NCBI GenBank assembly: GCA_041662665.1
Contig: JBAZSC010000001.1
Span: 513,511-577,510, forward strand
Direction: 5' to 3'
DNA: 64,000 bases
From: Patescibacteria group bacterium
Lineage (GTDB): Bacteria; Patescibacteriota; JABMPQ01; JAQVVF01
Each line of letters opens with the position of its first letter. Position 1 is the stretch's first letter. Of this stretch, positions 453 to 59,350 are shown piece by piece. The notes beneath the pieces were generated by a model. The model made no database searches and was not told the origin of the DNA. It was given only the letters and a program-made list of their open reading frames with translations. Position numbers and translations under genes: made by a program.

Positions 453-530
453 ACTAAGTTACAATCCTCAGGTTCTGGAGAGAAAGGCAAGAACACTCAC
501 AACGAGAGAGAAAACGAGGAGGCAAGGGAA

Positions 531-1598
531 ATGAAGCGCACCAACAACATGCTCAAGATCGTGGCGGCGGGTTTCGTGATGTTCATGATGATGTTCAACT
601 TCAACCCCTTCTACAACTACTTCTACGACGAGGACGAGGGTGTCGCGTACGCGCAGGGCGAGCAGAGCGAGAAGGTGGAGTGGAAGATGTTGGACGCTGG
701 GTTCCAGGGTCAGAACGTGGCCTGGAAGAGCGAGTGGTCCTCCATGGTCATGGATGCGAAGTCGATGGTTGATATGAATCCGCTGAGTTGTGTAGAGGTG
801 AAGGGTTTCGAGGACGTGATTGGCTACGGCCAGTCCAAGCAGGAGCGCCTGGAGATCCGGGTCGCGGGTGGCGAAGAGCCCCTGCGGCAGGATCGGGCGC
901 GCAAGCGGATGATCTACGTGATGAGCAAGATTCGTGAGACTGGGCTGGAAGGTGCACAGGTCAAGGAAGGAATCCCCGTCATCAACGCCCCCAAGGGGCA
1001 GCGTGGCGCGGTGATCACCCTGATCAAGGATTGCATTCCCAAGCCGCCTGTTGCCTGCTGGGATACGAACCAGAACAGCCAGTGTGACTACGAGGAAGAC
1101 GTCAACAAGGACAACAAGTGTGATGTCATCGACTGCAGGGGCGACGATGGATCGAACGGTCGGAACGGCAAGATGGACATCGACTACGACTTCATCGGCC
1201 AGTACATGGTGAGCTTCGAGCGACCTGACTTCTACGGCTTCGAGCTTCGCGTCAACTTCCCGGTCAGCGACATGCTGATGCTGGGACTGGGCGCGGAAGC
1301 AGGGAAGTCGGACGGTGTGGCGGCGGCGGGATTCGAGCTGGCTGGAGAGTACGATCTGAACCGCTACTTCAAGCCTCGTCTCTCCCTGGTCGGTCGGGCG
1401 TTCGAGCTCGACAATCATCTCTACTTCGGTAGGGGTGAGATCGGCGGAGGGCTGGGGTTCGTCGGCGAATTCGCGGAGTTCGACCACCTCTCCCTGATCT
1501 ACGAGCTCCGAGGAGAATGGAAGGGAGAACTGGCGACGGGCAGGCGGGAATGGAAGGACGTGAAGTCCGGGGTCTTCGACCTCGGCCTCCGGTTCTAG
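531..1598 (+). CDS. Secreted beta-rich protein encoded in GC-rich DNA; homolog of CDS 3410..4663
   Basis: N-terminal hydrophobic signal/TM segment. Strong GC3 codon bias. C-terminal alternating hydrophobic strands ending in ...GLRF (aromatic C-terminus, OMP-like). Blocks align with 3410..4663 (EKVEWKMLDAGF/EKIVQKWDLVDAAL; PLSCVEVKGFEDV/PTSCLDIAGIDDV; KGQRGAVITLIKDC/KGIRGVRITLVKGC; YDLNRYFKPRL/YDLVYLKPRI). Confidence 0.6.
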   Translation: MKRTNNMLKIVAAGFVMFMMMFNFNPFYNYFYDEDEGVAYAQGEQSEKVEWKMLDAGFQGQNVAWKSEWSSMVMDAKSMVDMNPLSCVEVKGFEDVIGYGQSKQERLEIRVAGGEEPLRQDRARKRMIYVMSKIRETGLEGAQVKEGIPVINAPKGQRGAVITLIKDCIPKPPVACWDTNQNSQCDYEEDVNKDNKCDVIDCRGDDGSNGRNGKMDIDYDFIGQYMVSFERPDFYGFELRVNFPVSDMLMLGLGAEAGKSDGVAAAGFELAGEYDLNRYFKPRLSLVGRAFELDNHLYFGRGEIGGGLGFVGEFAEFDHLSLIYELRGEWKGELATGRREWKDVKSGVFDLGLRF

Positions 1599-1692
1599 TT
1601 CGAGAAGCTCCGGGCGCCCGACAAGACAACCGGCTGACAAGAAGTCGGGCGCCCGGTTCCGGTGGCAAGAACGGTTCGAGAGGAGGTGTGCG

Positions 1693-2331
1693 ATGAACGC
1701 GTTCGCGAAGTTCCTGTTCTGCCTGCTGATCGGTCTGTGCCTGTCCATCAACTGGAGCTGCGCGCTCCGCGAGGACGCCCAGCCGCCGGAAGACGGTGGC
1801 GAGGGCGAGGGAGAAGGCGAGGGCGAGGGTGAGGGCGAAGGTGAAGGGGAAGGTGAGGGTGAAGGCGAAGGAGAAGGCTGCGAGGGCGAAGGTGAGGGCG
1901 AGGGCGTGGAGTGCCAGGACGGTGAGCTCCGCCCGTGCAACTGCGACAGCGGCGACGTCGGCTACCAGACCTGCAAGGGAAGCTGGGGCGAGTGCGTCTG
2001 CGACTGTGGCGGCGACTGCGAAGGTGAGGGCGAGGGCGGCGAGGGGGAGGGTGAAGGTGAGAGCTGCTCGGTGTGGATCCAGGATGGGATGCTGTGTGGT
2101 GACATCGCTGGTCTGACTTCGTGGACGTTCGGCTGCATGCCTCCGGGTGTGGAGTCGGTCTGCGAGCTGAAGACCTTCGGTGGAACCTGCACGATGATCC
2201 CGACTGGTGTCGACTCCGCGTGGCCCCGTTCGATCAACGGTGTCTGGCTGACAGTCGTGGGCTGCATGGCTCGCGACGGTCTCCAGATCACCAGCGATCC
2301 GAGCGGCGGCCACTACCTGACCCTGCCGTAA
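1693..2331 (+). CDS. Secreted acidic Cys-rich protein with (GE)n low-complexity repeat
   Basis: RBS GAGGAGG upstream and an N-terminal signal peptide. GGCGAG-type hexanucleotide repeat at about 1797-1875 encodes (GE)n. The Cys motif TCKGSWGECVC resembles the C..G..TC...GSWG.C modules of CDS 25243..28200. Confidence 0.5.
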   Translation: MNAFAKFLFCLLIGLCLSINWSCALREDAQPPEDGGEGEGEGEGEGEGEGEGEGEGEGEGEGCEGEGEGEGVECQDGELRPCNCDSGDVGYQTCKGSWGECVCDCGGDCEGEGEGGEGEGEGESCSVWIQDGMLCGDIAGLTSWTFGCMPPGVESVCELKTFGGTCTMIPTGVDSAWPRSINGVWLTVVGCMARDGLQITSDPSGGHYLTLP

Positions 2332-2423
2332 GATCTTCAATCCCGCCCGACAAACGCAAGTGCGTCGGGTGCGGCCTCTCTCAACACAACAACAAGCAAT
2401 TCCTGTACATTCTGTTCCTTTAA

Positions 2424-2451
2424 GAGTTCACTTCAGTGAGCTCTTTTTTTA
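2424..2451 (+). terminator. Intrinsic terminator
   Basis: GAGTTCAC-TTCA-GTGAGCTC hairpin followed by T7. Confidence 0.6.
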
Positions 2452-2452
2452 T

Positions 2453-2479
2453 CCGCCGAAGCCTGAAAGGCGAAGGCGG
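2453..2479. repeat. GC-rich REP-like hairpin element, copy A (CCGCCGAAGCC-loop-GGCGAAGGCGG)
   Basis: Same motif family recurs at 8243-8275, 20527-20562 (inside ugd) and 21570-21624. Confidence 0.5.
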
Positions 2480-2496
2480 ATTTTGTTCAAATTTTA

Positions 2497-2649
2497 GAAA
2501 CTCGGTTTTATGGGTAAAGAAAAATTAACGTATTTCTGGGATAGTTAATTTAAGTTAAGTAAAATGTTGCTTTGCACAAAAACCGAGTTTCGTAACGTCG
2601 TAATCAACACGCGAAACTCGGTTTTTTCGAAAACCGAGTTTCAAATCAG
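2497..2649. repeat. Left arm of 153-bp imperfect inverted repeat flanking the tRNA operon
   Basis: Reverse complement of 3079-3231. The ends match perfectly (GAAACTCGGTTTTATGGGTAAAGAAA and AAACTCGGTTTTTTCGAAAACCGAGTTTCAAATCAG) around a diverged middle. Holds four copies of the palindromic 12-mer GAAACTCGGTTT/AAACCGAGTTTC. Confidence 0.8.
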
Positions 2650-2760
2650 CTGTGATTTTACGTATTTATAAAATCACATAGAATTGCCCCAAAAGGCATA
2701 TTTTACTATAAAAGCAATATCATACCAGCTCTATATCAATCTCACGCTAGGCCAAAAACC

Positions 2761-2788
2761 TTGACAAATTTAGCCATTGTAGTATACT
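2761..2788 (+). promoter_or_regulatory. sigma70-like promoter of the tRNA operon: TTGACA, 16-nt spacer, TATACT
   Basis: Near-consensus boxes about 38 nt upstream of tRNA-Lys. Confidence 0.6.
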
Positions 2789-2825
2789 TATAAGTTAAAA
2801 ATCCAGCCACCTGTACTTTCGGTAA

Positions 2826-2901
2826 GCGCCCATAGCTCAGCTGGTAGAGCTGCGGACTTTTAATCCGTCGGTCGAGGGTTCGAATCCCTCTGGGCGTACC
2901 A
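2826..2901 (+). tRNA. tRNA-Lys (anticodon UUU), CCA encoded
   Basis: Manual cloverleaf: acceptor GCGCCCA/TGGGCGT, D-stem GCTC/GAGC, anticodon stem GCGGA/TCCGT with loop CTTTTAA, T-arm GAGGG-TTCGAAT-CCCTC, 3' ACCA. Confidence 0.9.
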
Positions 2902-2918
2902 CGTCAGTCGTTCCTTCA

Positions 2919-3007
2919 GCCCGGATGGCGAAAAGGCAGCCGCGCTGGGCTTAAAACCCGGTGGTCCTGAACCAACCGTGCGGGTTCGAATCCCGCTCCG
3001 GGCACCA
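2919..3007 (+). tRNA. tRNA-Leu (anticodon UAA), type II long variable arm, CCA encoded
   Basis: Acceptor GCCCGGA/TCCGGGC, anticodon stem CTGGG/CCCGG with loop CTTAAAA, long variable arm, T-arm GCGGG-TTCGAAT-CCCGC, discriminator A, CCA. Confidence 0.85.
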
Positions 3008-3010
3008 TCA

Positions 3011-3037
3011 ACAGCATCTAATCGTGCTGTTTTTTTC
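3011..3037 (+). terminator. Intrinsic terminator of the tRNA operon
   Basis: ACAGCA-N8-TGCTGT hairpin followed by T7. Confidence 0.7.
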
Positions 3038-3078
3038 TTGTCCAAATTTTTTGTTCAGTTGCTAATCGAATATCAATA

Positions 3079-3231
3079 CTGATTTGAAACTCGGTTTTCG
3101 AAAAAACCGAGTTTCGCGTGTTGACTGTAACACTACGAAACTCGGTTTTTGTGCAAAGCAATATTTTATTTTATCTAAATAAACTATTTAAAAAATACAC
3201 TAATCTTTCTTTACCCATAAAACCGAGTTTC
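3079..3231. repeat. Right arm of 153-bp inverted repeat flanking the tRNA operon
   Basis: Reverse complement of 2497-2649; contains the same palindromic 12-mers. Confidence 0.8.
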
Positions 3232-3287
3232 TATTCGAGCGATTTGTGGCCTTAAGGCATTCGTGAGATTAGTAATGTAAAAAGAGT

Positions 3288-4690: not shown

Positions 4691-4832
4691 TGCTTACAAA
4701 TCTCACAAATGCCTTCTGGCCACAAATTAACACCAATAATTTAGAGAAACTTTTTTTTATTCAAAAAATATGTTACACTAAAAAAAAGTCAATTTCTTAA
4801 TTTCCGAATTTCTTAATTTCTAAAATTATTAA

Positions 4833-6282: not shown

Positions 6283-6400
6283 TATCAATTTTACAATTTA
6301 CAATAAATTACCAATTTACAATTTTCAAATTATGGTTTTCTGCTTGAAAATTGGTTATTGAAAATTTATTGTAAATTGATAATTGGAAATTGAAAATTTT
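6283..6400. repeat. Long imperfect AT-rich intergenic palindrome built from TTGTAAATTG/CAATTTACAA motifs
   Basis: Arms at 6286-6335 and 6350-6400 are mutual reverse complements with mismatches. The same motif family forms the palindrome at 14105-14225. Confidence 0.5.
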
Positions 6401-10067: not shown

Positions 10068-10096
10068 GTAGCGACAGGGCAGTGCCCTGTCGCTAC
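10068..10096. promoter_or_regulatory. 29-bp perfect palindrome GTAGCGACAGGGCA-G-TGCCCTGTCGCTAC, 18 nt upstream of the rmlC-like start
   Basis: Identical element (central base complemented) at 17818-17846. Confidence 0.6.
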
Positions 10097-13273: not shown

Positions 13274-14104
13274 ATGAAAATATTAATAACCGGCGCTCGT
13301 GGCATGTTAGGCCAAGATTTATGTTCTCTTTTAGAAAAAGAACATGAAATAATAAAATATGATCGCGAAGAATTAGATATTACAAATGCAGAAATGGTTG
13401 ACGAAGTTCTGCCAAAATTAAATCCAAATGCAGTTATAAATTGTGCTGCTTTTACTGATGTTGATGGTTGTGAAGAACAAACAAAAAAAGAAATTGCCAT
13501 GAAAGTTAATGGCTATGGACCAGGAAATCTAGCCAAAGCTTGTGCAAAATTAGACATCCCATTTTTTCATTACAGCACAGATTATATTTTTAATGGCCAA
13601 GAAAAAAATGGCTATAAAGAAGATTATGACAAAATAGATCCAATCAATGCTTATGGCGAAACAAAAGCATTGGGTGAAAAATTAATTAAAGAAAATTGTA
13701 CAAAATATTATATTTTAAGAACAGCCTGGCTTTATGGAAAATTAGGCAAAAATTTTGTTGACACAATGTTGCAATTAGCTCAAAAAAATGATAATTTAAG
13801 GGTAGTCAACGATCAGCACGGCAAGCCAACTTTTACTTTAGATTTAGCCAAAAGAACAAAAGAAATTCTGGATCAAAAAGTGAAGCCAGGAATATATCAT
13901 GTAACCAATGAAGGAGAAGCGAGTTGGTACGATTTTGCTAACGAAATTTTCAAAATTAAAGGCGTAAAAATAAAAGTTACGCCATGCAAAACTTCTGAAT
14001 TTCCAAGGAAAGCTATAAGACCAGAATATTCCGCATTAATAAATACTAAATTACCGGCAATGAGAAAATGGCAAGAGGCGTTAGCCGAGTATTTAGCAAA
14101 CTAA
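13274..14104 (+). CDS. rmlD: dTDP-4-dehydrorhamnose reductase
   Basis: MKILITGARGMLG...; YSTDYIFNG motif; 276 aa. Confidence 0.8.
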   Translation: MKILITGARGMLGQDLCSLLEKEHEIIKYDREELDITNAEMVDEVLPKLNPNAVINCAAFTDVDGCEEQTKKEIAMKVNGYGPGNLAKACAKLDIPFFHYSTDYIFNGQEKNGYKEDYDKIDPINAYGETKALGEKLIKENCTKYYILRTAWLYGKLGKNFVDTMLQLAQKNDNLRVVNDQHGKPTFTLDLAKRTKEILDQKVKPGIYHVTNEGEASWYDFANEIFKIKGVKIKVTPCKTSEFPRKAIRPEYSALINTKLPAMRKWQEALAEYLAN

Positions 14105-14225
14105 TTTTCAATTATCAATAATCAATTTACAATAAATTTTCAATTCACAATTCTCAATGAGCTGTTTGTAAATTAGTTCATTGGAAATTGATTGAAAATT
14201 GGAAATTGTAAATTGAAAATTAAAT
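14105..14225. repeat. Long imperfect AT-rich intergenic palindrome of the TTGTAAATTG/CAATTTACAA family
   Basis: Arms at about 14108-14160 and 14170-14222; shares motifs with 6283-6400. Confidence 0.45.
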
Positions 14226-17817: not shown

Positions 17818-17846
17818 GTAGCGACAGGGCACTGCCCTGTCGCTAC
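17818..17846. promoter_or_regulatory. Second copy of the 29-bp perfect palindrome (central base C), 9 nt upstream of the epimerase start
   Basis: GTAGCGACAGGGCA-C-TGCCCTGTCGCTAC; the reverse complement of the copy at 10068-10096. Confidence 0.6.
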
Positions 17847-17855
17847 CAAAACATT

Positions 17856-18785
17856 ATGAAAATATTAGTCACAGGCGGTGCAGGCTTCATTGGCTCGCAC
17901 ATTGTCGATAAATTAATAGCAGAAAATAATGAAGTTGTTGTTATTGATAATTTATCAACTGGCAAAAAAGAAAATTTAAACAACAAAGCAAAATTTTATC
18001 AAGCTGATATCAAAAATTTTGAAGATGTAGAAAAAGTATTTGAGCAAGAAAAACCAGAATATATTTGTCACCAAGCAGCTCATGCCTCAGTTTCAGAATC
18101 AGTCAAAGATCCAATTTATGATGCTGAAAATAATATTTTAGGATCAATAAATATTATAAAATTAGCAATCAAATATAATATTAAAAAAATAGTTTTCGCT
18201 TCAACAGGTGGCGCAATGTATGGCGATGCTGAAATTATTCCAACGCCTGAAAAATCAGAAACAAAGCCGGTTTCTCCATATGCTGTTACAAAGCTTGCAG
18301 TTGAAAAATATTTATATTGCTTCAATTTTTTAAATAAGTTAAACTATACTATTCTACGCTATGCAAATGTTTATGGCCCAAAACAAGATCCATTTGGTGA
18401 GGCTGGAGTAGTTGCAATTTTTAGCCAAAAAATAGTTAATAATGAACAGCCAATAATCAACGGCGATGGCAAATACACTAGAGATTATGTTTATGTTACA
18501 GACATCGCAAATGCAAATTTATTGGCATTGAAAAGTGAAAAATCGCAAAATATTTACAATGTAGGAACTGGAATAGAGACAGATGTTAATACAATTTTCC
18601 AGAATTTATCTAAAATTTCTGGAAAAAATATTCCTGAAAAACATGGTGAAGCAAGAAAGGGTGATCATAGAAAAGGTGCAATCGATTCAACAAAAATTAA
18701 GCAAGAATTAAATTGGCAACCAACAGTTAAATTAGAAGATGGTTTGAAAGAAACATATAAATGGTTTTCGAACTTAAAATCCTAA
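17856..18785 (+). CDS. NAD-dependent sugar-nucleotide epimerase (UDP-glucose 4-epimerase-like)
   Basis: [20 protein letters not shown]...; YAVTKLAVEKY (YxxxK). Confidence 0.7.
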   Translation: MKILVTGGAGFIGSHIVDKLIAENNEVVVIDNLSTGKKENLNNKAKFYQADIKNFEDVEKVFEQEKPEYICHQAAHASVSESVKDPIYDAENNILGSINIIKLAIKYNIKKIVFASTGGAMYGDAEIIPTPEKSETKPVSPYAVTKLAVEKYLYCFNFLNKLNYTILRYANVYGPKQDPFGEAGVVAIFSQKIVNNEQPIINGDGKYTRDYVYVTDIANANLLALKSEKSQNIYNVGTGIETDVNTIFQNLSKISGKNIPEKHGEARKGDHRKGAIDSTKIKQELNWQPTVKLEDGLKETYKWFSNLKS

Positions 18786-18917
18786 GCACTAAATCCTAAA
18801 TACTAAACAAATCCAAATTACTAAAACTCAAATTTTCAAAGGTCGCAACATTGTTTTATATTTTGTAAATTAGAATTTTGAATTTGTTTTGAGTTTAGTA
18901 TTTAGGATTTAGTGCTT
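18784..18917. repeat. About 134-bp imperfect palindrome with perfect 25-bp terminal arms (AAGCACTAAATCCTAAATACTAAAC / GTTTAGTATTTAGGATTTAGTGCTT)
   Basis: Between the epimerase stop and metK; candidate terminator or structured element. Confidence 0.55.
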
Positions 18918-18955
18918 TCTAATCTAAATTAATTTTAACAAGTCAAAAATAAAAC

Positions 18956-23978: not shown

Positions 23979-25004
23979 ATGAGAATCCTGAACTTTCTAG
24001 TATTTTGTGGAGTTGCTTGTTTTTCATCGACTGCTTATACTCAAGAAGAATCCGAAAGCAAGTCGGATATTGCTATTGTTTTGATGTCTGAAGAAACTCA
24101 TGATCAGAGAATGGTAGATGATGCTGTTGAAATGATTATTGCCAAATTTTCAAATGAAAAGATCCAGTCTTCTGGCAAAGAAATGTTTGGCAGTGATTCT
24201 GATGAACAGATCAAAACTTGTCTGAAAGACAATTCTTGTGTACAAAAAAAAGCTGTGGAAAAACATGTTTCCCGAGTATTTTATGGAACTTTGGCTAGTG
24301 ACAGAAGAGTTGAAAATGTTGTAGTTATCACTCCTGGCAAGAGATACAATAAGATCAAGGATGTTGTTCCAGTAGAGAAGAAAACTCTGACTATTAGACT
24401 GACTATGTTTGATGCAGTCAACAACAAGGTTGAAATGTCATGGGTGAGCAAAAAGATTGAACCAAGCAAACTCGCTTCTGAAGTTCTGACTGACATTGCT
24501 TCCGAAGCTGTTCGTATCTACAAGGCAAGTCCACTGACCTGGCCAGAAACAAAAAAGCCAAATACTGAAGTCAAGGTTGAAATTGTAAATGTCGATCCTG
24601 TTTCAGAACCAGCCAAGCCAGTTGTCGAAGAAGTGCAGGAAAAGCCAATCGTTCTGCTGGATCCTGAAGTGAGCAATTTGGATTGGCATTTCTGGACGAG
24701 CGTTGGCGGTGCAAGTGTCGGTGTAATCTTGATTTCTGCAGGCAGTTACTACGGTCTCAAGTCAAGCAATGCTAGCGACAATTATGATGCAACCAACATT
24801 CAGACCCAGGCAGAAAGCTTTAAAGATGAAGCAGAATCTGCTGGATCAACTGCTAACATTATGTTTGCTTCTGGTGGAGTTCTGATTGCAGGCAGTGCAG
24901 CTCTTTATGTTCTTGATCAATTCGGTATTCTCGATGCCAATGAATCACCTCAGGCAGTTTTCGTGCCAAAAGACGGCATGTTCTGTTTGAACCTTTCGTT
25001 CTAA
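23979..25004 (+). CDS. Secreted/membrane-anchored hypothetical protein
   Basis: Strong SD (GAGGAGGAG), signal peptide MRILNFLVFCGVACFSS, C-terminal hydrophobic segments. The ATG at 23979 is preferred over the ORF-track start at 23913. Confidence 0.55.
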   Translation: MRILNFLVFCGVACFSSTAYTQEESESKSDIAIVLMSEETHDQRMVDDAVEMIIAKFSNEKIQSSGKEMFGSDSDEQIKTCLKDNSCVQKKAVEKHVSRVFYGTLASDRRVENVVVITPGKRYNKIKDVVPVEKKTLTIRLTMFDAVNNKVEMSWVSKKIEPSKLASEVLTDIASEAVRIYKASPLTWPETKKPNTEVKVEIVNVDPVSEPAKPVVEEVQEKPIVLLDPEVSNLDWHFWTSVGGASVGVILISAGSYYGLKSSNASDNYDATNIQTQAESFKDEAESAGSTANIMFASGGVLIAGSAALYVLDQFGILDANESPQAVFVPKDGMFCLNLSF

Positions 25005-25030
25005 ACGCTATTTTTGGCGTTTTTTTATTG
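25003..25030 (+). terminator. Intrinsic terminator
   Basis: AAACGC-N8-GCGTTT hairpin followed by a T-run. Confidence 0.45.
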
Positions 25031-25242
25031 CCTGAAATCCTATATTTTACGTTCAGCTTAAATATTATATTTGAAAATAATAATGCTTCTAGGCTCAAAA
25101 ATTGACAAAATTATACAAAATATCCATAATAAGCCATTTTCTCTTGCCAAAATTTTATGATTATGCTATTATAATATGAACAGAAAACCAGGAAAGGTCG
25201 GTTACAGGACCGAACCTTCACATCAAGAGAGGAGGAAGAGAG

Positions 25243-28200
25243 ATGAGACAAACAGCATTAATGTTTTTGTTGTCCTTGTATTTTGTTGGTTGTATTGCAG
25301 AGTTGGCACCTGCTGATGAAAAGAATGGAAAGAATCTTTGTGATGAAAATGCACGTTGCTCTGATGGCTATACTTGTGTTTGCAACATGAATAATCATTC
25401 CAAGATTTGCGTGAAGAATCCGAATGCTGAAATGATTTTGGCAAACAAGTCTACTGTCTGTGAAGAGACTATGTCTGACACCGGACCCGATGCTGAAGCT
25501 GACGCCGAAGTTGGAACAAGCGCTGATATCGACGCTGATTCTAACGCTGAAGCGGACGCTGAAGTCGGAACGCCTGATGAAGATTCGACGACTGATACAG
25601 ATGCCAACGCTTCTACCGATGTCGAGCCTGATGAAGGCAACGATGTTGGTAATGACGCTCAGCCTGATGTCTCGCCTGACAATGGAACCGATCTCGGTTC
25701 TGATGTCGGTGAAGATGTTCCTTGTATTCCCGCAACCGAAATCTGTGATGGCGTTGACAATGACTGCGATAGCTATACTGACGAAGATTTCAACAATCTG
25801 AATCAGTCCTGTTCTGTCGGACTCGGTTTGTGTGAGAACGAAGGCGTTTACGTTTGTAGTACCGATAGAAGCACAACTGTTTGTAATGTTGCAGCTTTTC
25901 AAGCTTATCCTGAAGAATGTGATGACATGGACAACGACTGCGATGGCCAAACTGACGAAGATTTGGTTGGCTGTTGCGACGTTGACGCTGTTCAGGAATG
26001 CGGATCTGATGTTGGGGAATGTGTGAAGGGCGAGATGACTTGTCAGGAAGATGGCAGTTGGGGCGACTGTGAAAACGCTGTTGGTCCGACTGTTGATCTT
26101 TGCGACAGTCTTGACAATGACTGTGATGGCGCAACTGACGAGGATTTTCTGAATCGAGGGATGGAATGCCAGATTGGTCAAGGCAACTGTCTTTCTAATG
26201 GCAATTATGCTTGTACTGAAGATATGTTTGGAACTTTCTGTGCAGCTCTGATCATCCAGCCGTCCAATGAGGCTTGCGATCAGCAGGATAATGACTGCGA
26301 TGGCGCAACTGATGAGGACTTGGTTGGATGTTGCGAGCCTAACGATCAGGTCGAATGCGGATCCGCTGTCGGCGAATGCCGTAAGGGTCACAAGACTTGT
26401 TCGATTGATGGTGTGTGGAGCGAATGTCTTGAAGAAGTGAAGCCAATGGCTGAACTTTGTGATGGCAAGGATAACAACTGCGACGGTCAGACAGATGAAA
26501 CCTTTGCTAATCTGAACAGCGAATGTCAGATTGGGCGTGGTGAATGTCTGTCGATTGGTCGCATGACTTGCGGTGTTGATCAGCAGTCAACGTCTTGTAA
26601 TGCAGATATCCTCACCGGCAACGATGAGATCTGTGATAACAAAGATAATGACTGCGATGGCGATGTTGACGAAAATCTGCTGCGTGAATGTGGCAGTGAC
26701 GTCGGTGAATGTGAGATCGGTATCCAATCTTGTTTTGCTGGTGGCTGGCTTGCCTGCGAAGGTGAGATTCAGTCGAGCGACGAGATTTGTGATAACCTTG
26801 ATAACAATTGCGACGGTAATACAGATGAAGGTTTCAACATCAACGATCAATGCTTTGAAGGTCTTGGCGAATGCCAGGCTGAAGGCGTGATCGTTTGTGT
26901 TGATGAGAATATGAGTGCTTGCAATGCAGTTGTCGGTCAGCAGTCGGAAGAGACATGCGATGGCTTGGACAACGATTGCGATGGCAATACAGATGAAGAG
27001 TTGGAAAATTGTTGTATTCCTGATACCATTTCCGAATGCGGTATTGACACTGGCGAATGTGTGAAGGGAACTTCCACTTGCCAGGCAGACCGTACTTGGG
27101 GTTGGTGTTTGGATGCAACTGGACCATCGGATGAAATCTGCGATGGATTGGATAACAACTGCGATGGCGAAACAGACGAAGGTTTGACTGGTTGTTGCTC
27201 ACCTTCCGTTTCTCGCAACTGCGGATCTGATGTGGGCGAATGCTCTCATGGGACGCAGATTTGCTGGGAAAGCCGTGAGTGGGGCGAATGCCAGAATCAG
27301 ACTTTGCCTGCAAATGAAATCTGCGATGGACTTGACAATGACTGCGATGGCCAGACAGACAATGGATTCGACCTCATGGCTGAAGCCAATAACTGCGGCC
27401 AATGCAATTATGTTTGTGGCAGTCAGGGGACAGTGAGTACTACTTGCGAAGCAGGTGAGTGCGTTCTGACGTGCAGCCGCTTCCGAGTTGATTTGAACAC
27501 TGATCCGACTGACGGCTGTGAATGTGAAGTCACCAATTGCGGTGTGGAAATCTGCGATCAGGTGGACAACGATTGTGATGGTGCAATTGACGAAGACTGT
27601 GATTCTCTCGTCATGTACCTGAGCTTCGATGGACACATGAATGATGGATCTACCAATGCCAACAACGCTCTCAACCATGGCGCCACTTACACTGCTGATG
27701 CAGTTTGTGGCCAGGCAGCATCGTTCGACGGAGTCGACGATTATGCCGAAGTGGCTGATAGCGTGAGCATGGATTCGATTGTGAATGAGTTTACGATTTG
27801 CGTTTCAGCAAATGTGACTGATTACGAAAGAGGTGATGTTGTATTCTCAAAGTTTAGGCTGCAACCAGCACTTGGAATCGAATGGAACGATGTAACTATG
27901 GAAAACAACTGGACATTCTTTTTAAACCGAGTAAAGCTTGCTCAGGGAAGAACTGTTAATGTGAATCAGTGGATTACTTTCTGTGGGAAATTCAAGCAAG
28001 GAGTTTTTACTGCATACATTGATGGCGAACAAATTTGGCAAGGTAATGCTCAAAACCCAGTTGGCGGTATTACCTATATTGGGTCTAACGATATGCCACC
28101 AGCCAAGAACAGCCACACAAAGATTGATGAGACTACATTTTATAACGTTGCACTTTCCGATGAGGAAATCCAGCACTACTTTGAAATCATGAAACGCTAG
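25243..28200 (+). CDS. Large secreted (lipo)protein with 11 MopE-like/TSP3-like Cys-rich Ca-binding repeats (CDGxDNDCDGxTDE) and a C-terminal LamG/concanavalin-A-like domain
   Basis: Strong SD, signal peptide with ...YFVGC. N-terminal acidic DAEADAEVGT repeats. Eleven copies of C-D-x-x-D-N-D-C-D-G-x-x-D-E alternate with two types of Cys-knot-like spacers. C-terminal LSFDG...DGSTNANNALNHGAT...ASFDGVDDYAEV is the LamG_3 signature. GC about 45-50%. Confidence 0.7.
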   Translation: MRQTALMFLLSLYFVGCIAELAPADEKNGKNLCDENARCSDGYTCVCNMNNHSKICVKNPNAEMILANKSTVCEETMSDTGPDAEADAEVGTSADIDADSNAEADAEVGTPDEDSTTDTDANASTDVEPDEGNDVGNDAQPDVSPDNGTDLGSDVGEDVPCIPATEICDGVDNDCDSYTDEDFNNLNQSCSVGLGLCENEGVYVCSTDRSTTVCNVAAFQAYPEECDDMDNDCDGQTDEDLVGCCDVDAVQECGSDVGECVKGEMTCQEDGSWGDCENAVGPTVDLCDSLDNDCDGATDEDFLNRGMECQIGQGNCLSNGNYACTEDMFGTFCAALIIQPSNEACDQQDNDCDGATDEDLVGCCEPNDQVECGSAVGECRKGHKTCSIDGVWSECLEEVKPMAELCDGKDNNCDGQTDETFANLNSECQIGRGECLSIGRMTCGVDQQSTSCNADILTGNDEICDNKDNDCDGDVDENLLRECGSDVGECEIGIQSCFAGGWLACEGEIQSSDEICDNLDNNCDGNTDEGFNINDQCFEGLGECQAEGVIVCVDENMSACNAVVGQQSEETCDGLDNDCDGNTDEELENCCIPDTISECGIDTGECVKGTSTCQADRTWGWCLDATGPSDEICDGLDNNCDGETDEGLTGCCSPSVSRNCGSDVGECSHGTQICWESREWGECQNQTLPANEICDGLDNDCDGQTDNGFDLMAEANNCGQCNYVCGSQGTVSTTCEAGECVLTCSRFRVDLNTDPTDGCECEVTNCGVEICDQVDNDCDGAIDEDCDSLVMYLSFDGHMNDGSTNANNALNHGATYTADAVCGQAASFDGVDDYAEVADSVSMDSIVNEFTICVSANVTDYERGDVVFSKFRLQPALGIEWNDVTMENNWTFFLNRVKLAQGRTVNVNQWITFCGKFKQGVFTAYIDGEQIWQGNAQNPVGGITYIGSNDMPPAKNSHTKIDETTFYNVALSDEEIQHYFEIMKR

Positions 28201-52870: not shown

Positions 52871-53698
52871 ATGCAAAATACGAATGTGATTCAAGATCAA
52901 AAATATTTTTTCGATTTAAATGCCCAAAAAGAAGAAAAAAAAGTAAACAAAAACAACTTTTTCTATATTTATAATACAGAAATCATCTATTCTGGTTTTA
53001 ATTGGTTATCTGATAGAAAGAAGATAATTGATTATGGATGCGGGACTGGTAAAAACATTGAAATGTTTTTGGACAATACGAACGACAAAAGCAAGAGTTT
53101 TATTGGTGTTGATATTTCTGATGAAGCAATTAAAAAGGCAAAAGAAAAATTTACAGAAAAACAATATAATTTCATCAAAATTTCAAACAATAAAATACCG
53201 CAAATTGCTGATATGGGAACCGATGGAGCTTATATGATTTGTGTTTTACATCATAGTCATGAACATCAGGCAATTTTTAACGAAATTTATAAAAAATTGA
53301 AGAAAAATGGGAAATTTTACATTGTAGATTTAACAGCAGATAACATAATTGTGAATTTTGCAAGAAATGCTTTTACAATATTGCCAAAAAAATTTAGGAA
53401 TAGCTTTAGCGATGACCTAGTTGTTGATGGAAAAATTCCAGAAAAATATGTAGTTAATATCAATAGTGTTGTCCAACAACTTAAACAAACTGGCTTTGAA
53501 ATTCAGGGGATAGATAAAAGTGAACTTTTTTTATTTATTGCAAGCTGGGTAGAAAAATTTGTCCCTATAAGTTGCAATGATTCTAACCTTTACTGTAAAT
53601 TACTAAGAAAATGCCATCAACTTGAAAAGAAAATGCTTAAAATTAATTATTTTAATAAAAGGGCTCATGTTTTTTCAATAAAATGCATCAAAAAATAG
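52871..53698 (+). CDS. Class I SAM-dependent methyltransferase
   Basis: IDYGCGTGKN motif I. Confidence 0.6.
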   Translation: MQNTNVIQDQKYFFDLNAQKEEKKVNKNNFFYIYNTEIIYSGFNWLSDRKKIIDYGCGTGKNIEMFLDNTNDKSKSFIGVDISDEAIKKAKEKFTEKQYNFIKISNNKIPQIADMGTDGAYMICVLHHSHEHQAIFNEIYKKLKKNGKFYIVDLTADNIIVNFARNAFTILPKKFRNSFSDDLVVDGKIPEKYVVNINSVVQQLKQTGFEIQGIDKSELFLFIASWVEKFVPISCNDSNLYCKLLRKCHQLEKKMLKINYFNKRAHVFSIKCIKK

Positions 53699-54429
53699 AC
53701 AATTCAAACAATTGTATGCCGTCACAGCATGGAGGCTATTCACCAGGAAAAGAAAAGCCAATGCTGAATATAATAAATGACATATTGAAAGAGAATAAAC
53801 GTGGTTTTAAATTAATTGACATAGGATGTGGCGACGGATTTTTTTTAAACATGTTTTATCAAATTTTAGAAGAAAAAAAAATTGATTTAGATAATGTTAA
53901 ACTGGTTGGAATTGATAAGCATGAATACCATAATTCTTCAAGAAATAATAAAATTTTTTTTCTCAAAGAAGATATTTTTGAAATTGAAAAGCATTTCCCA
54001 CATAATTATTTTGATTTTGTAGTTTGTTCAGAGGTCATTGAACATGTTGTCGAAACAGATAAATTGATTAAGAAAATTAAAAAGATATTAAAACCAAATG
54101 GTTTTTTATTTTTGACTACACCAAATTTAGCTTCATATCACGGCAGATTTTCGTTATTAATGGGTCTTTTACCACTCGCGAGTGAAATAAGCAATGAAAA
54201 TGCAAAATTTGGAAAAGGCTTTTTATCGAAATATTATTTTACTTCGTCAAAACCGATTTTTCATGTTCGCGTCTTCACATTAAAAGCCCTAAAAGAATTT
54301 ATTATTTTTCACAAATTAGAAATAAAGAACATTTCTGGTTTTGATTACAAGATGCCTTGGTTTTGGAAAAAAATTCCTTCATTTGCACCTGGAATTTATA
54401 TGATTTGCCAAAATACAAAAGATTTTTAA
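53683..54429 (+). CDS. Class I SAM-dependent methyltransferase
   Basis: IDIGCGDGFF motif I; CSEVIEHV motif. Confidence 0.6.
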   Translation: MHQKIDNSNNCMPSQHGGYSPGKEKPMLNIINDILKENKRGFKLIDIGCGDGFFLNMFYQILEEKKIDLDNVKLVGIDKHEYHNSSRNNKIFFLKEDIFEIEKHFPHNYFDFVVCSEVIEHVVETDKLIKKIKKILKPNGFLFLTTPNLASYHGRFSLLMGLLPLASEISNENAKFGKGFLSKYYFTSSKPIFHVRVFTLKALKEFIIFHKLEIKNISGFDYKMPWFWKKIPSFAPGIYMICQNTKDF

Positions 54430-58741: not shown

Positions 58742-59350
58742 ATGATAGCAGTTCGTAAAATTATCTTTGTTTTCACATTAATTTTAATACCCATTTTTTT
58801 CACCCTAATTATTTTGAGGTTGCTTTTTAATACCCAGTTTAATTATTACTCATACTTAGATTATTCAATTCTTTTGGCAATTATATTAGATGTTATAATT
58901 TTGAATCGCGTATCCAGCAAAAATGGATTTAAAAGAGAAAAATCTATGCTGATTTTTTTAATTAGTTTCTTAAGCATTGATTTAATTTGGCTGATAGAAA
59001 AAAGAATTACTATCCCAATAAGTGTTTATCAAGAATCTATGCTATTTCCATTTAGAATTATCGCCTTTTTGATTCTTATTGGTGTATTTTTTTTAGCACT
59101 CAACAAACAGCCACTTGGAATTAAGTTAAAAATACTACTTCTCAAATTAATAGATCCGCGTTCGATCATTTTTCTTGCAATTATCTTTTTATCAATATGT
59201 TGTTTTTTTCTTTTTTTCAAAGCTGATCCAATTGCAGAAAAAGCTGCAAACGTCGCTTATTTATTGCTTGTCATTGGAGCAATTGGTTTATTCATACAGT
59301 ATTTAATCAATTTGAGAAGAGAAAGAAAAAATAAGTTGCCAAAAATATGA
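58742..59350 (+). CDS. Small integral membrane protein (about 6 TM)
   Basis: Hydrophobicity only. Confidence 0.4.
   Translation: MIAVRKIIFVFTLILIPIFFTLIILRLLFNTQFNYYSYLDYSILLAIILDVIILNRVSSKNGFKREKSMLIFLISFLSIDLIWLIEKRITIPISVYQESMLFPFRIIAFLILIGVFFLALNKQPLGIKLKILLLKLIDPRSIIFLAIIFLSICCFFLFFKADPIAEKAANVAYLLLVIGAIGLFIQYLINLRRERKNKLPKI

Follow-up and report, generated by a model that had tools for sequence, protein, structure and literature searches.

A possible locus-specific cluster of palindromic hairpins around an independent tRNA operon in a Patescibacteria genome

Introduction

In a 64,000-nt stretch of DNA from a Patescibacteria group bacterium (assembly GCA_041662665.1, contig JBAZSC010000001.1, positions 513,511 to 577,510; hereafter the window), two long segments that are nearly reverse complements of each other, which we term the arms, stand on either side of a small operon with the genes for tRNA-Lys and tRNA-Leu. 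The question that this locus raises is whether the arms mark the ends of a mobile or invertible tRNA cassette, as a sequence-only reading had proposed among other possibilities, or whether arms and operon are separate entities. The comparison with related genomes speaks against the first part of the question: the window's tRNA operon does not look like a dedicated mobile tRNA cassette, because the relatives show the palindrome and the tRNA operon as separate pieces. As to the nature of the arms, the reading that we prefer, and hold tentatively, is that they form a locus-specific cluster of palindromic hairpins that straddles an independent tRNA operon and resembles the repetitive extragenic palindromic (REP) sequences and bacterial interspersed mosaic elements (BIMEs). 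The window has about 29% GC and consists nearly entirely of a polysaccharide/O-antigen gene cluster, in which the arms occupy a long intergenic region between a GC-rich gene for a secreted protein and a Wzy_C gene.

Structure of the two arms

A repeat search of the window returned inverted arms at 2495-2659 and 3069-3233 (165 nt, 86% complementary). When the mismatches were counted over the arms as first delimited plus 2 nt outward each (2495-2649 against 3079-3233), 19 of the 155 positions differed, i.e., the identity was 87.7%, and the reverse complementarity of the arms was upheld. The mismatches were found in two stretches (13 at 2523-2566 and 6 at 2595-2603) and left three perfect blocks (2495-2522, 2567-2594 and 2604-2649); the inner 70 bp or so, which had been taken for one perfect match, are split by the mismatches at 2595-2603.

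Both arms carry a 13-nt motif, GAAACTCGGTTTT or AAAACCGAGTTTC (core GAAACTCGGTTT), of which eight exact copies were found in the 64 kb, four in each arm, as counted before, and none outside the arms. Beyond these, the window gave only four matches with two mismatches, which is the background level. The motif had been described as a self-complementary 12-mer; instead, the core, AAAC-TCG-GTTT, is only nearly palindromic, its asymmetric centre gives each copy an orientation, and the two spellings are reverse complements of each other. We term GAAACTCGGTTTT the F and AAAACCGAGTTTC the R orientation. The order in the left arm is F (2497), R (2579), F (2613) and R (2630), named F1, R2, F3 and R4 below, and the right arm is its mirror. 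Each arm is made of a 95-bp unit (F, 69 nt, R), 21 nt, a 30-bp hairpin (F, 4 nt, R) and the sequence AAATCAG:

2495-2649, no strand: left arm, with the 95-bp hairpin unit, 21 nt, the 30-bp hairpin and 7 nt (AAATCAG)
3079-3233, no strand: right arm, reverse complement of the left arm (87.7% identity)
2497-2591, minus strand: left 95-bp unit, stem F 2497-2509 / R 2579-2591, 69-nt AT-rich spacer (covariance model score, 102 bits)
3137-3231, plus strand: right 95-bp unit, stem F 3137-3149 / R 3219-3231, 69-nt spacer (covariance model score, 96.5 bits)
2613-2642, no strand: small hairpin of the left arm, perfect 13-bp stem, loop TTCG
3086-3115, no strand: small hairpin of the right arm, perfect 13-bp stem, loop CGAA

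The small hairpins had been reported as 31-bp super-palindromes. A hairpin with a perfect 13-bp stem was indeed present in each arm, but it contains a 4-nt loop (TTCG on the left, CGAA on the right) and is 30 bp long. In short-read contigs of the same organism (SRR18595301, Logan), sequences ended inside these hairpins: L002 breaks within 2613-2642 and L001 starts within 3086-3115. Both arms show, in their 95-bp units, two inverted near-palindromic repeats around a 69-nt spacer and a predicted hairpin, which is the architecture of the REPINs discussed below. All 52 motif positions were free of the 19 substitutions between the arms (hypergeometric P = 2.3e-4), and the 13-mers are therefore under constraint or being homogenised.

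The tRNA operon between the arms

The 429-bp module at 2650-3078 holds a near-consensus promoter, two tRNA genes and a terminator, all of which were located as the sequence-only reading had announced; the arm ends are more than 110 bp away from the promoter. These features, and the terminator hairpins of the GC-rich gene upstream of the arms, are as follows:

2761-2788, plus strand: promoter TTGACA-16-TATACT, 11 of 12 consensus positions (consensus scan)
2826-2901, plus strand: tRNA-Lys(UUU) (ARAGORN and Rfam), absent from the locus in L086 and L095
2919-3007, plus strand: tRNA-Leu(UAA) (ARAGORN and Rfam)
3010-3038, plus strand: intrinsic terminator of the tRNA operon, 8-bp stem and T7 (consensus scan)
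2422-2487, plus strand: two terminator hairpins of the upstream GC-rich gene, T1 (2422-2450) and T2 (2451-2487)

T1 is conserved in the relatives, and T2 is GC-rich and specific to the window. The codons read by the two tRNAs, AAA (Lys) and UUA (Leu), are presumably among the commonest of a genome with 29% GC.

Arms and operon in related genomes

Seven related loci were reached through the flanking proteins. All of them share the gene order Wzz, GT4, GC-rich gene(s), variable intergenic region and Wzy_C; the contigs L091-L094, which were found via the GT4 protein, end before the intergenic region. Two units of 95 bp, termed b and c, with spacers of 66-69 nt, were present in L086 (GCA_964574655.1) and again in L090, in both cases 28 nt apart and with no tRNA between them. 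An alignment of the spacers only showed that unit c, to which the right unit of the window is homologous, is oriented as that unit, and that b is inverted with respect to c (z of 2.6 to 5). In the window the left-unit spacer is likewise inverted relative to the right-unit spacer, and 545 bp (21 nt, hairpin, tRNA module, hairpin, 21 nt) separate the two units. Since b and c are inverted and lie 28 nt apart, the inverted pair is independent of tRNA genes between its halves. In L085, which has a homologue of the window's 417-aa protein with 70% identity, the outer part of the right unit is retained, with CCCAT AAAACCGAGTTTC exact at the orthologous site and a diverged spacer. The module of L085 may perhaps also be bracketed by arms, because the L085 contig breaks at the edge of the repeated block.

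The operon was, for its part, found without arms. In L086 the same promoter (94% over 32 nt aligned), the tRNA-Leu gene and the terminator lie to the right of both units, with no tRNA-Lys, and in L095 (GCA_028699085.1, contiguous) the promoter, tRNA-Leu and terminator are preceded only by one degenerate small hairpin, with no units and no arms. L090 has units and no tRNA at the locus, and L097 and L098 have neither. The tRNA content of the locus is then Lys and Leu, Leu only, or none, and among the compared loci the module is bracketed by arms only in the window. Palindromic units and tRNA module occur independently of each other, and the proposal that the arms are the boundaries of a tRNA cassette does not agree with a module that is armless in L086 and L095 and with inverted units that have no tRNA between them in L086 and L090. 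tRNA-Lys was seen at the locus only in the window genome, and tRNA-Leu is missing from it in L090, L097 and L098, so that the chromosomal place of presumably essential tRNAs varies among close relatives.

The stems of the units in L086 and L090 (AAGGTTCGGTCTT/AAGGCCGAACCTT and AAGGCTCGGCTTT/AAAGCCGAGCCTT) are unlike the window stem: 4-6 of the 13 positions differ between the window and units b and c, and complementarity is kept throughout. When six units were analysed with RNAalifold, only the 13-bp outer helix was retained, with compensatory double changes in 6 of the 13 pairs, and the 69-nt interior showed no conserved structure. What is conserved is the complementarity of the stem, and not its sequence.

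These observations bear on the idea that the module is an invertible or excisable cassette, on which a recombinase would act at the 30-bp hairpins as lox/FRT/dif-like sites. The layout of the hairpins (13-bp inverted arms and a short asymmetric centre) is like that of tyrosine-recombinase sites, the two sites are mutually inverted (loops TTCG and CGAA), the neighbouring 417-aa gene module also lies within a 34-bp inverted repeat, the module content differs among relatives, and direct pairs of 13-mers (e.g., R at 2579 and R at 3103) would permit a precise deletion that leaves the layout of the relatives. However, known recombinase sites have a centre of 6-8 bp, which is longer than the 4 nt found here; the tRNA genes have one orientation in all three genomes with the module (the window, L086 and L095); the inversion of a self-contained unit would alter nothing; the stems drift by compensatory change, which would be intolerable for a sequence-specific recombinase; and no recombinase was matched in the scanned open reading frames (ORFs) of the window or in 21 kb of L086. 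We consider such a cassette very unlikely.

The suggestion that the arms are attL/attR scars, left when a GC-rich island integrated beside the tRNA genes, fared worse. The first 2 kb of the window, directly left of the arms, have 53% GC as opposed to about 29% elsewhere, tRNA genes are common integration targets, and a duplicated tRNA-Leu 3′ end exists in relatives. Nevertheless, the arms are inverted and not direct, both are located to the right of the island, neither overlaps a tRNA gene, and no copy of the motif was found on the left of the island. The island, whose genes code for secreted proteins rich in Cys and Gly/Glu that matched nothing in Pfam, is present in the relatives whether or not they have arms or tRNA genes (L086, L090, L091, L092, L095 and L098), and it is kept there at 66-74% nucleotide identity and still GC-rich, so that it is not a recent acquisition. 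The tRNA 3′ duplications of the relatives are in addition unrelated to the 13-mer. We attach next to no probability to an integration scar.

Searches for further copies and for mobilizing enzymes

A covariance model (R1) built from six units was run over 157 kb of clade DNA, and it returned only the units, the small hairpins, the partial copy in L085 and one terminator hairpin in L094. All the copies found lie at one locus, and a search for further copies, which had been proposed as a check on the arms, gave no 13-mer in the rest of the 64 kb and no unit elsewhere in the 157 kb. In order to look for enzymes, 52 ORFs were scanned against Pfam. Five of these lie in alternative frames, and the other 47 are the window ORFs of 150 aa or more that are not overlapped, 49 in total, less those at 53683-54429 and 58742-59350. 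Recombinase, integrase and transposase families had no match in these 52 ORFs, and recombinases and transposases had none in 21 kb of L086. The Y1_Tnp family (RAYT) was matched neither in the 52 ORFs of the window, which makes up about 10% of the genome, nor in L086. Target-site duplications, the mark of a miniature inverted-repeat transposable element (MITE), were not consistently present at the unit ends.

A second view of the units is that they are non-autonomous REPIN- or MITE-like elements moved in trans, two copies of which landed in opposite orientation around the tRNA operon. Their build is that of REPINs, with inverted near-palindromic repeats, a less conserved spacer, a hairpin and compensatory changes (PMC3116915). 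The positions of the units differ between the window and L086/L090 and units are absent from L095, L097 and L098, the eight 13-mers are identical within the window genome and different between genomes, and other REP-like hairpins occur in the genome, one of them with a GTAG start. This view has to contend with the location of every copy at one intergenic locus, with none in the other 63 kb or in about 90 kb of clade DNA, and with the negative results for RAYT/transposases in the 52 ORFs and for target-site duplications. Furthermore, the inverted repeat extends 7 nt (AAATCAG) past the terminal 13-mer, so that more was duplicated than an element with terminal repeats at its ends, and the arm spacers are 19% diverged, which indicates that the copies are old. 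The MITE-like element of the sequence-only reading hence stands as to the hairpin-forming palindromic repeats of MITE/REP type and the rearrangement of the region among relatives, and it fails as to target-site duplications and dispersed copies; a mobile family of this sort is in our judgement unlikely.

Outside the clade, exact hairpins of the form F-loop-R or R-loop-F were found in public collections at 21 genome loci and 61 metagenome loci, mostly of Chloroflexota/Anaerolineae and also of Parabeggiatoa, Hormoscilla and high-GC metagenome contigs. They are single short hairpins, often just past stop codons, and their R-loop-F form, with A-tract, stem and T-tract, has the standard shape of a terminator. 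No 95-bp unit was seen at these loci, and a tRNA was near the hairpin at none of the 21 genome loci and at 2 of the 20 scanned metagenome loci (L070 and L045). Near-variants with compensatory stems within the same contigs indicate that the stem family is real in those genomes. The palindromic query holds only about 13 independent bases, and for this reason we take the public hits as a recurrent family of terminator-like stems and not as homologues of the arms. In phage DNA only the tRNAs were matched, no viral contig of those scanned for the hairpin gave a match (0 matches), and a literature search for the motif returned nothing relevant.

Some of the public loci deserve mention in their own right. 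Stems of the type (A)GAAACYNGGTTTTT / AAAAACCNRGTTTC(T) were present in both loop arrangements at loci L003-L084 (Chloroflexota/Anaerolineae, Parabeggiatoa, Hormoscilla and many high-GC metagenome contigs; examples are L015 1985-2017 and 4499-4574, L035 1621-1849, L046, L053 and L056), and a contig can have several copies, sometimes within larger composite repeats; we know of no description of this hairpin family. In a metagenome subgroup (L036, L047, L080 and L029, and on the opposite strand L051, L061, L068 and L079) the flanks are shared as well, i.e., ...CTATAG...TTTGA AAAACCGAGTTTC, 32-35 nt, GAAACTCGGTTTT TCTATC..., which suggests a separate structured element, about 100 nt long, that had no Rfam match at gathering score. 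Two loci are probable assembly artefacts: L078 contains at 55-94 a head-to-head Nextera adapter palindrome, CTGTCTCTTATACACATC, and L069 opens with a perfect palindrome (bases 1-96, 47-bp stem).

Folding of the arms and a possible role as transcription barrier

A folding of the arms, which had also been proposed as a check, gave stable structures. As RNA, the single arms reached -52 and -53 kcal/mol (z of -6 and -6.9), and the whole region as single-stranded DNA folded by arm-to-arm pairing at -187 kcal/mol (z of -21). Each arm can pair in two alternative ways, F1:R2 with F3:R4 or F1:R4 with R2:F3, and the R2:F3 hairpin has the shape of a bidirectional terminator:

2571-2633, no strand: R2:F3 hairpin of the left arm, A5 tract, 10-bp stem, 19-nt loop, T6 tract
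3095-3157, no strand: mirror copy of the terminator-shaped hairpin, right arm

The 19-nt loop of R2:F3 is beyond the limits of the terminator scanner, which flagged only the minus-strand reading of the small hairpin. The terminator between the convergent Wzz and GT4 genes of the same genomes uses related stems (e.g., AAAAACGAGTTTC-aaaaa-GAGACTCGTTTTT), and R-loop-F hairpins with A and T tracts sit behind stop codons in other contigs.

The strong folding and the covariation of the stem pairs would also suit a small structured RNA of about 95-150 nt, and the near-palindromic form of each 13-mer (AAAC-N3-GTTT) would suit an operator for a dimeric protein that regulates the tRNA operon. When the arms were compared with Rfam, no family was matched even at E values up to 10, hits to the arms scored far under their thresholds without exception, and only the two tRNAs passed the gathering score. 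Moreover, the closing helix alone is conserved and the 69-nt interior is unstructured, the arms are inverted so that one promoter direction cannot serve both, and a candidate short ORF (ATG at 2510) is unconserved in relatives. The protein site proposed by the sequence-only reading conflicts with compensatory double substitutions that keep the pairing and not the sequence, and the operator array proposed for the tRNA promoter conflicts with the distance of the arms from it and with its conservation in L086 and L095, which lack arms. A small RNA or an operator is, taken together, quite improbable.

Under the preferred reading, the arms would be the halves of an old, locally evolving palindromic hairpin cluster specific to the locus, in which each half has a 95-bp unit, with a spacer whose length (about 69 nt) is conserved and whose sequence is free, and a 30-bp hairpin. 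The unit of promoter, tRNA genes and terminator would be an independent, older transcription unit that lies between the halves in the window genome. The hairpins would form in single-stranded nucleic acid, either RNA or the lagging-strand template, and the perfection of their stems may be maintained by selection for pairing, by intrastrand templated correction, or by both. R2:F3, with its A-tract and T-tract, could act as a bidirectional transcription barrier and shield the tRNA operon, with its strong promoter, from the co-directional units that flank it; the cluster is probably a transcription barrier between three co-directional, separately promoted units. The nested inverted and direct 13-mers may in addition favour recombination at the locus and slippage during its replication, and the shuffling of tRNA and gene modules among relatives would be accounted for in this way. 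The presence of other intergenic palindrome families in the window genome supports this reading.

Several points weigh against it. The function of the hairpins is predicted only; the tRNA operon and the upstream gene have their own terminators, which makes an extra barrier seem redundant; and in an RNA that folds while it is transcribed, F1:R2 and F3:R4 would be preferred to the terminator-shaped R2:F3. Correction templated by the hairpin itself can yield compensatory change without a selected function. The window covers 64 kb of a 645-kb genome, which leaves room for a dispersed low-copy family, and two histories fit the comparison, namely the insertion of the tRNA module into the palindrome or its loss from the relatives.

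As a speculative extension, to which we assign a very low probability, the palindrome centres of this clade might be landing pads where self-contained gene modules were inserted, exchanged and lost. The modules would be the tRNA operon and the 417-aa surface-protein gene with its own 34-bp inverted repeat, and the process would be directed by structure, for example by breakage and repair of a cruciform or hairpin, or by a recombinase that recognises single-stranded DNA hairpins. If true, these landing pads would be a cassette system without integron or transposase.

Relation to known repeat elements

The closest known systems are the REP, BIME and REPIN repeats. The RAYT-associated REPINs are inverted doublets of near-palindromes with a less conserved spacer, which form hairpins and show compensatory changes (Bertels & Rainey 2011; PMC3116915). 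The cluster described here is like these repeats in being extragenic, in its short near-palindromes of alternating orientation that form higher-order clusters, and in its inverted doublets with a less conserved spacer of fixed length, long hairpin and compensatory changes; roles in termination or mRNA stabilisation have been proposed for them too. It differs from them in that its copies lie at one locus in 157 kb and no RAYT was found within the scope given above, in that its repeat has 13 nt with a 5-bp self-stem, as opposed to 20-35 nt in REPs, and in that its spacer is unpaired. The MITE-like Correia/NEMIS, ERIC and RUP elements share a size of about 100-150 bp, terminal inverted repeats, an intergenic location and RNA hairpins, and can carry terminator or promoter activity, whereas the arms have no target-site duplication or dispersed copies and the shared block exceeds the terminal repeats.

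With bidirectional intrinsic terminators, including those made of pairs of DNA uptake sequences (DUS) or uptake signal sequences (USS), the R-loop-F form shares the A-tract, the 9-10-bp stem and the T-tract, as well as the use of related stems between convergent genes here and past stop codons in other contigs. In contrast to these terminators, an arm has four half-sites and not two, the loop measures 19-21 nt, and the T-tract of F-loop-R is inside the stem; unlike DUS/USS, the 13-mer is not over-represented across the window. Invertons and pdif modules are similar in that a self-contained module lies within inverted repeats with a short palindromic core, as does the neighbouring module, but here the scanned ORFs included no recombinase, the three genomes with the module gave no sign of an orientation polymorphism, the repeat is far longer than known sites, and the sequence of the stems is unconserved between relatives.

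Extragenic palindromic hairpin clusters are, then, already known; what is new is an example from Patescibacteria, with compensatory stems and a central tRNA operon. The small genomes of Patescibacteria (also known as the candidate phyla radiation, CPR) are thought to hold little repeat DNA, and literature searches gave no relevant account of extragenic palindromic repeats in this group. Because compensatory stems, a constant spacer length and reshuffling of the tRNA module are found together among close relatives, the locus is a tractable case in which to separate hairpins that are selected as terminators or insulators from hairpins that are self-maintaining by-products of replication, and it could show whether it is such hairpins that cause tRNA genes to move. 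For annotators, the practical point is that a gene module enclosed by a long inverted repeat should not be called a mobile or invertible cassette on that ground alone.

Other candidates and repeats in the window and its relatives

Some further candidates were considered for the arms and rejected. A hammerhead ribozyme, suggested by GAAAC, lacks the CUGANGA core. A leader peptide or attenuator would start at the ATG at 2510 and encode MGKEKLTYFWDS followed by a stop (in the right arm, MGKERLVYFLNSLFR followed by a stop), but no Shine-Dalgarno sequence was found and the ATG is absent in relatives. A 13-nt direct repeat, TTGTYCAAATTTT (2483 and 3038), taken as an att core, has a third copy inside a gene, and by our estimate chance alone would give about a dozen matches of this kind in DNA so rich in AT. 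No sequence resemblance to parS, dif or CIRCE-like sites is apparent.

Downstream of the tRNA-Leu gene of the relatives, fragments of the tRNA-Leu 3′ end were observed, one in L086 (7280-7413) and two in tandem in L095 (7160-7375). Each consists of GGGTTCG, two GC-rich hairpins (about 44 nt) within the T-loop, and then AATCCCGCTCCGGGCACCA, with its own terminator per copy. The fragment in L086 yields a perfect 25-nt direct repeat, and between L086 and L095 the loops of the two hairpins have changed places and are reverse-complemented. Integration into the T-loop may have left these fragments as scars, or they may be genes for small tRNA-derived RNAs.

Next to the right arm, the 417-aa gene, which has a promoter and a terminator of its own, is enclosed with them by a 34-nt inverted repeat (3242-3275 and 4694-4727, 88% complementary). 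In L086 one copy was found and the gene is absent; in L095 one copy lies upstream of a pair of genes of 269 and 419 aa; in L098 two copies form an adjacent palindrome with nothing between them; and in L085 the gene is present with almost no copy of the repeat.

The GC-rich islands of the window (480-2400 and 24000-28200, 48-53% GC per 2 kb) encode secreted Cys-rich or (GEGE)n-rich proteins, one of which, of 985 aa, has five MopE-type metal-binding motifs and a laminin-G domain.

Other palindromes were detected in gaps between genes. A perfect GC-rich hairpin, GTAGCGACAGGGC-agt/act-GCCCTGTCGCTAC, is present at 10068-10096 and, with the loop inverted, at 17818-17846, in short gaps between co-directional genes; it shares its GTAG start with the REP elements that RAYT transposases recognise. 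Intergenic palindromes that are AT-rich, measure about 115 bp and are built of reiterated CAATTTACAATTT / TTGAAAATTGG lie at 6285-6398 and 14102-14222, 7.7 kb apart and 87% complementary to each other over 55 nt, and intergenic arrays of short motifs were also seen at 265-360, 4796-4830 and 18771-18930. The window genome seems in general to favour palindromes that reiterate a short motif.

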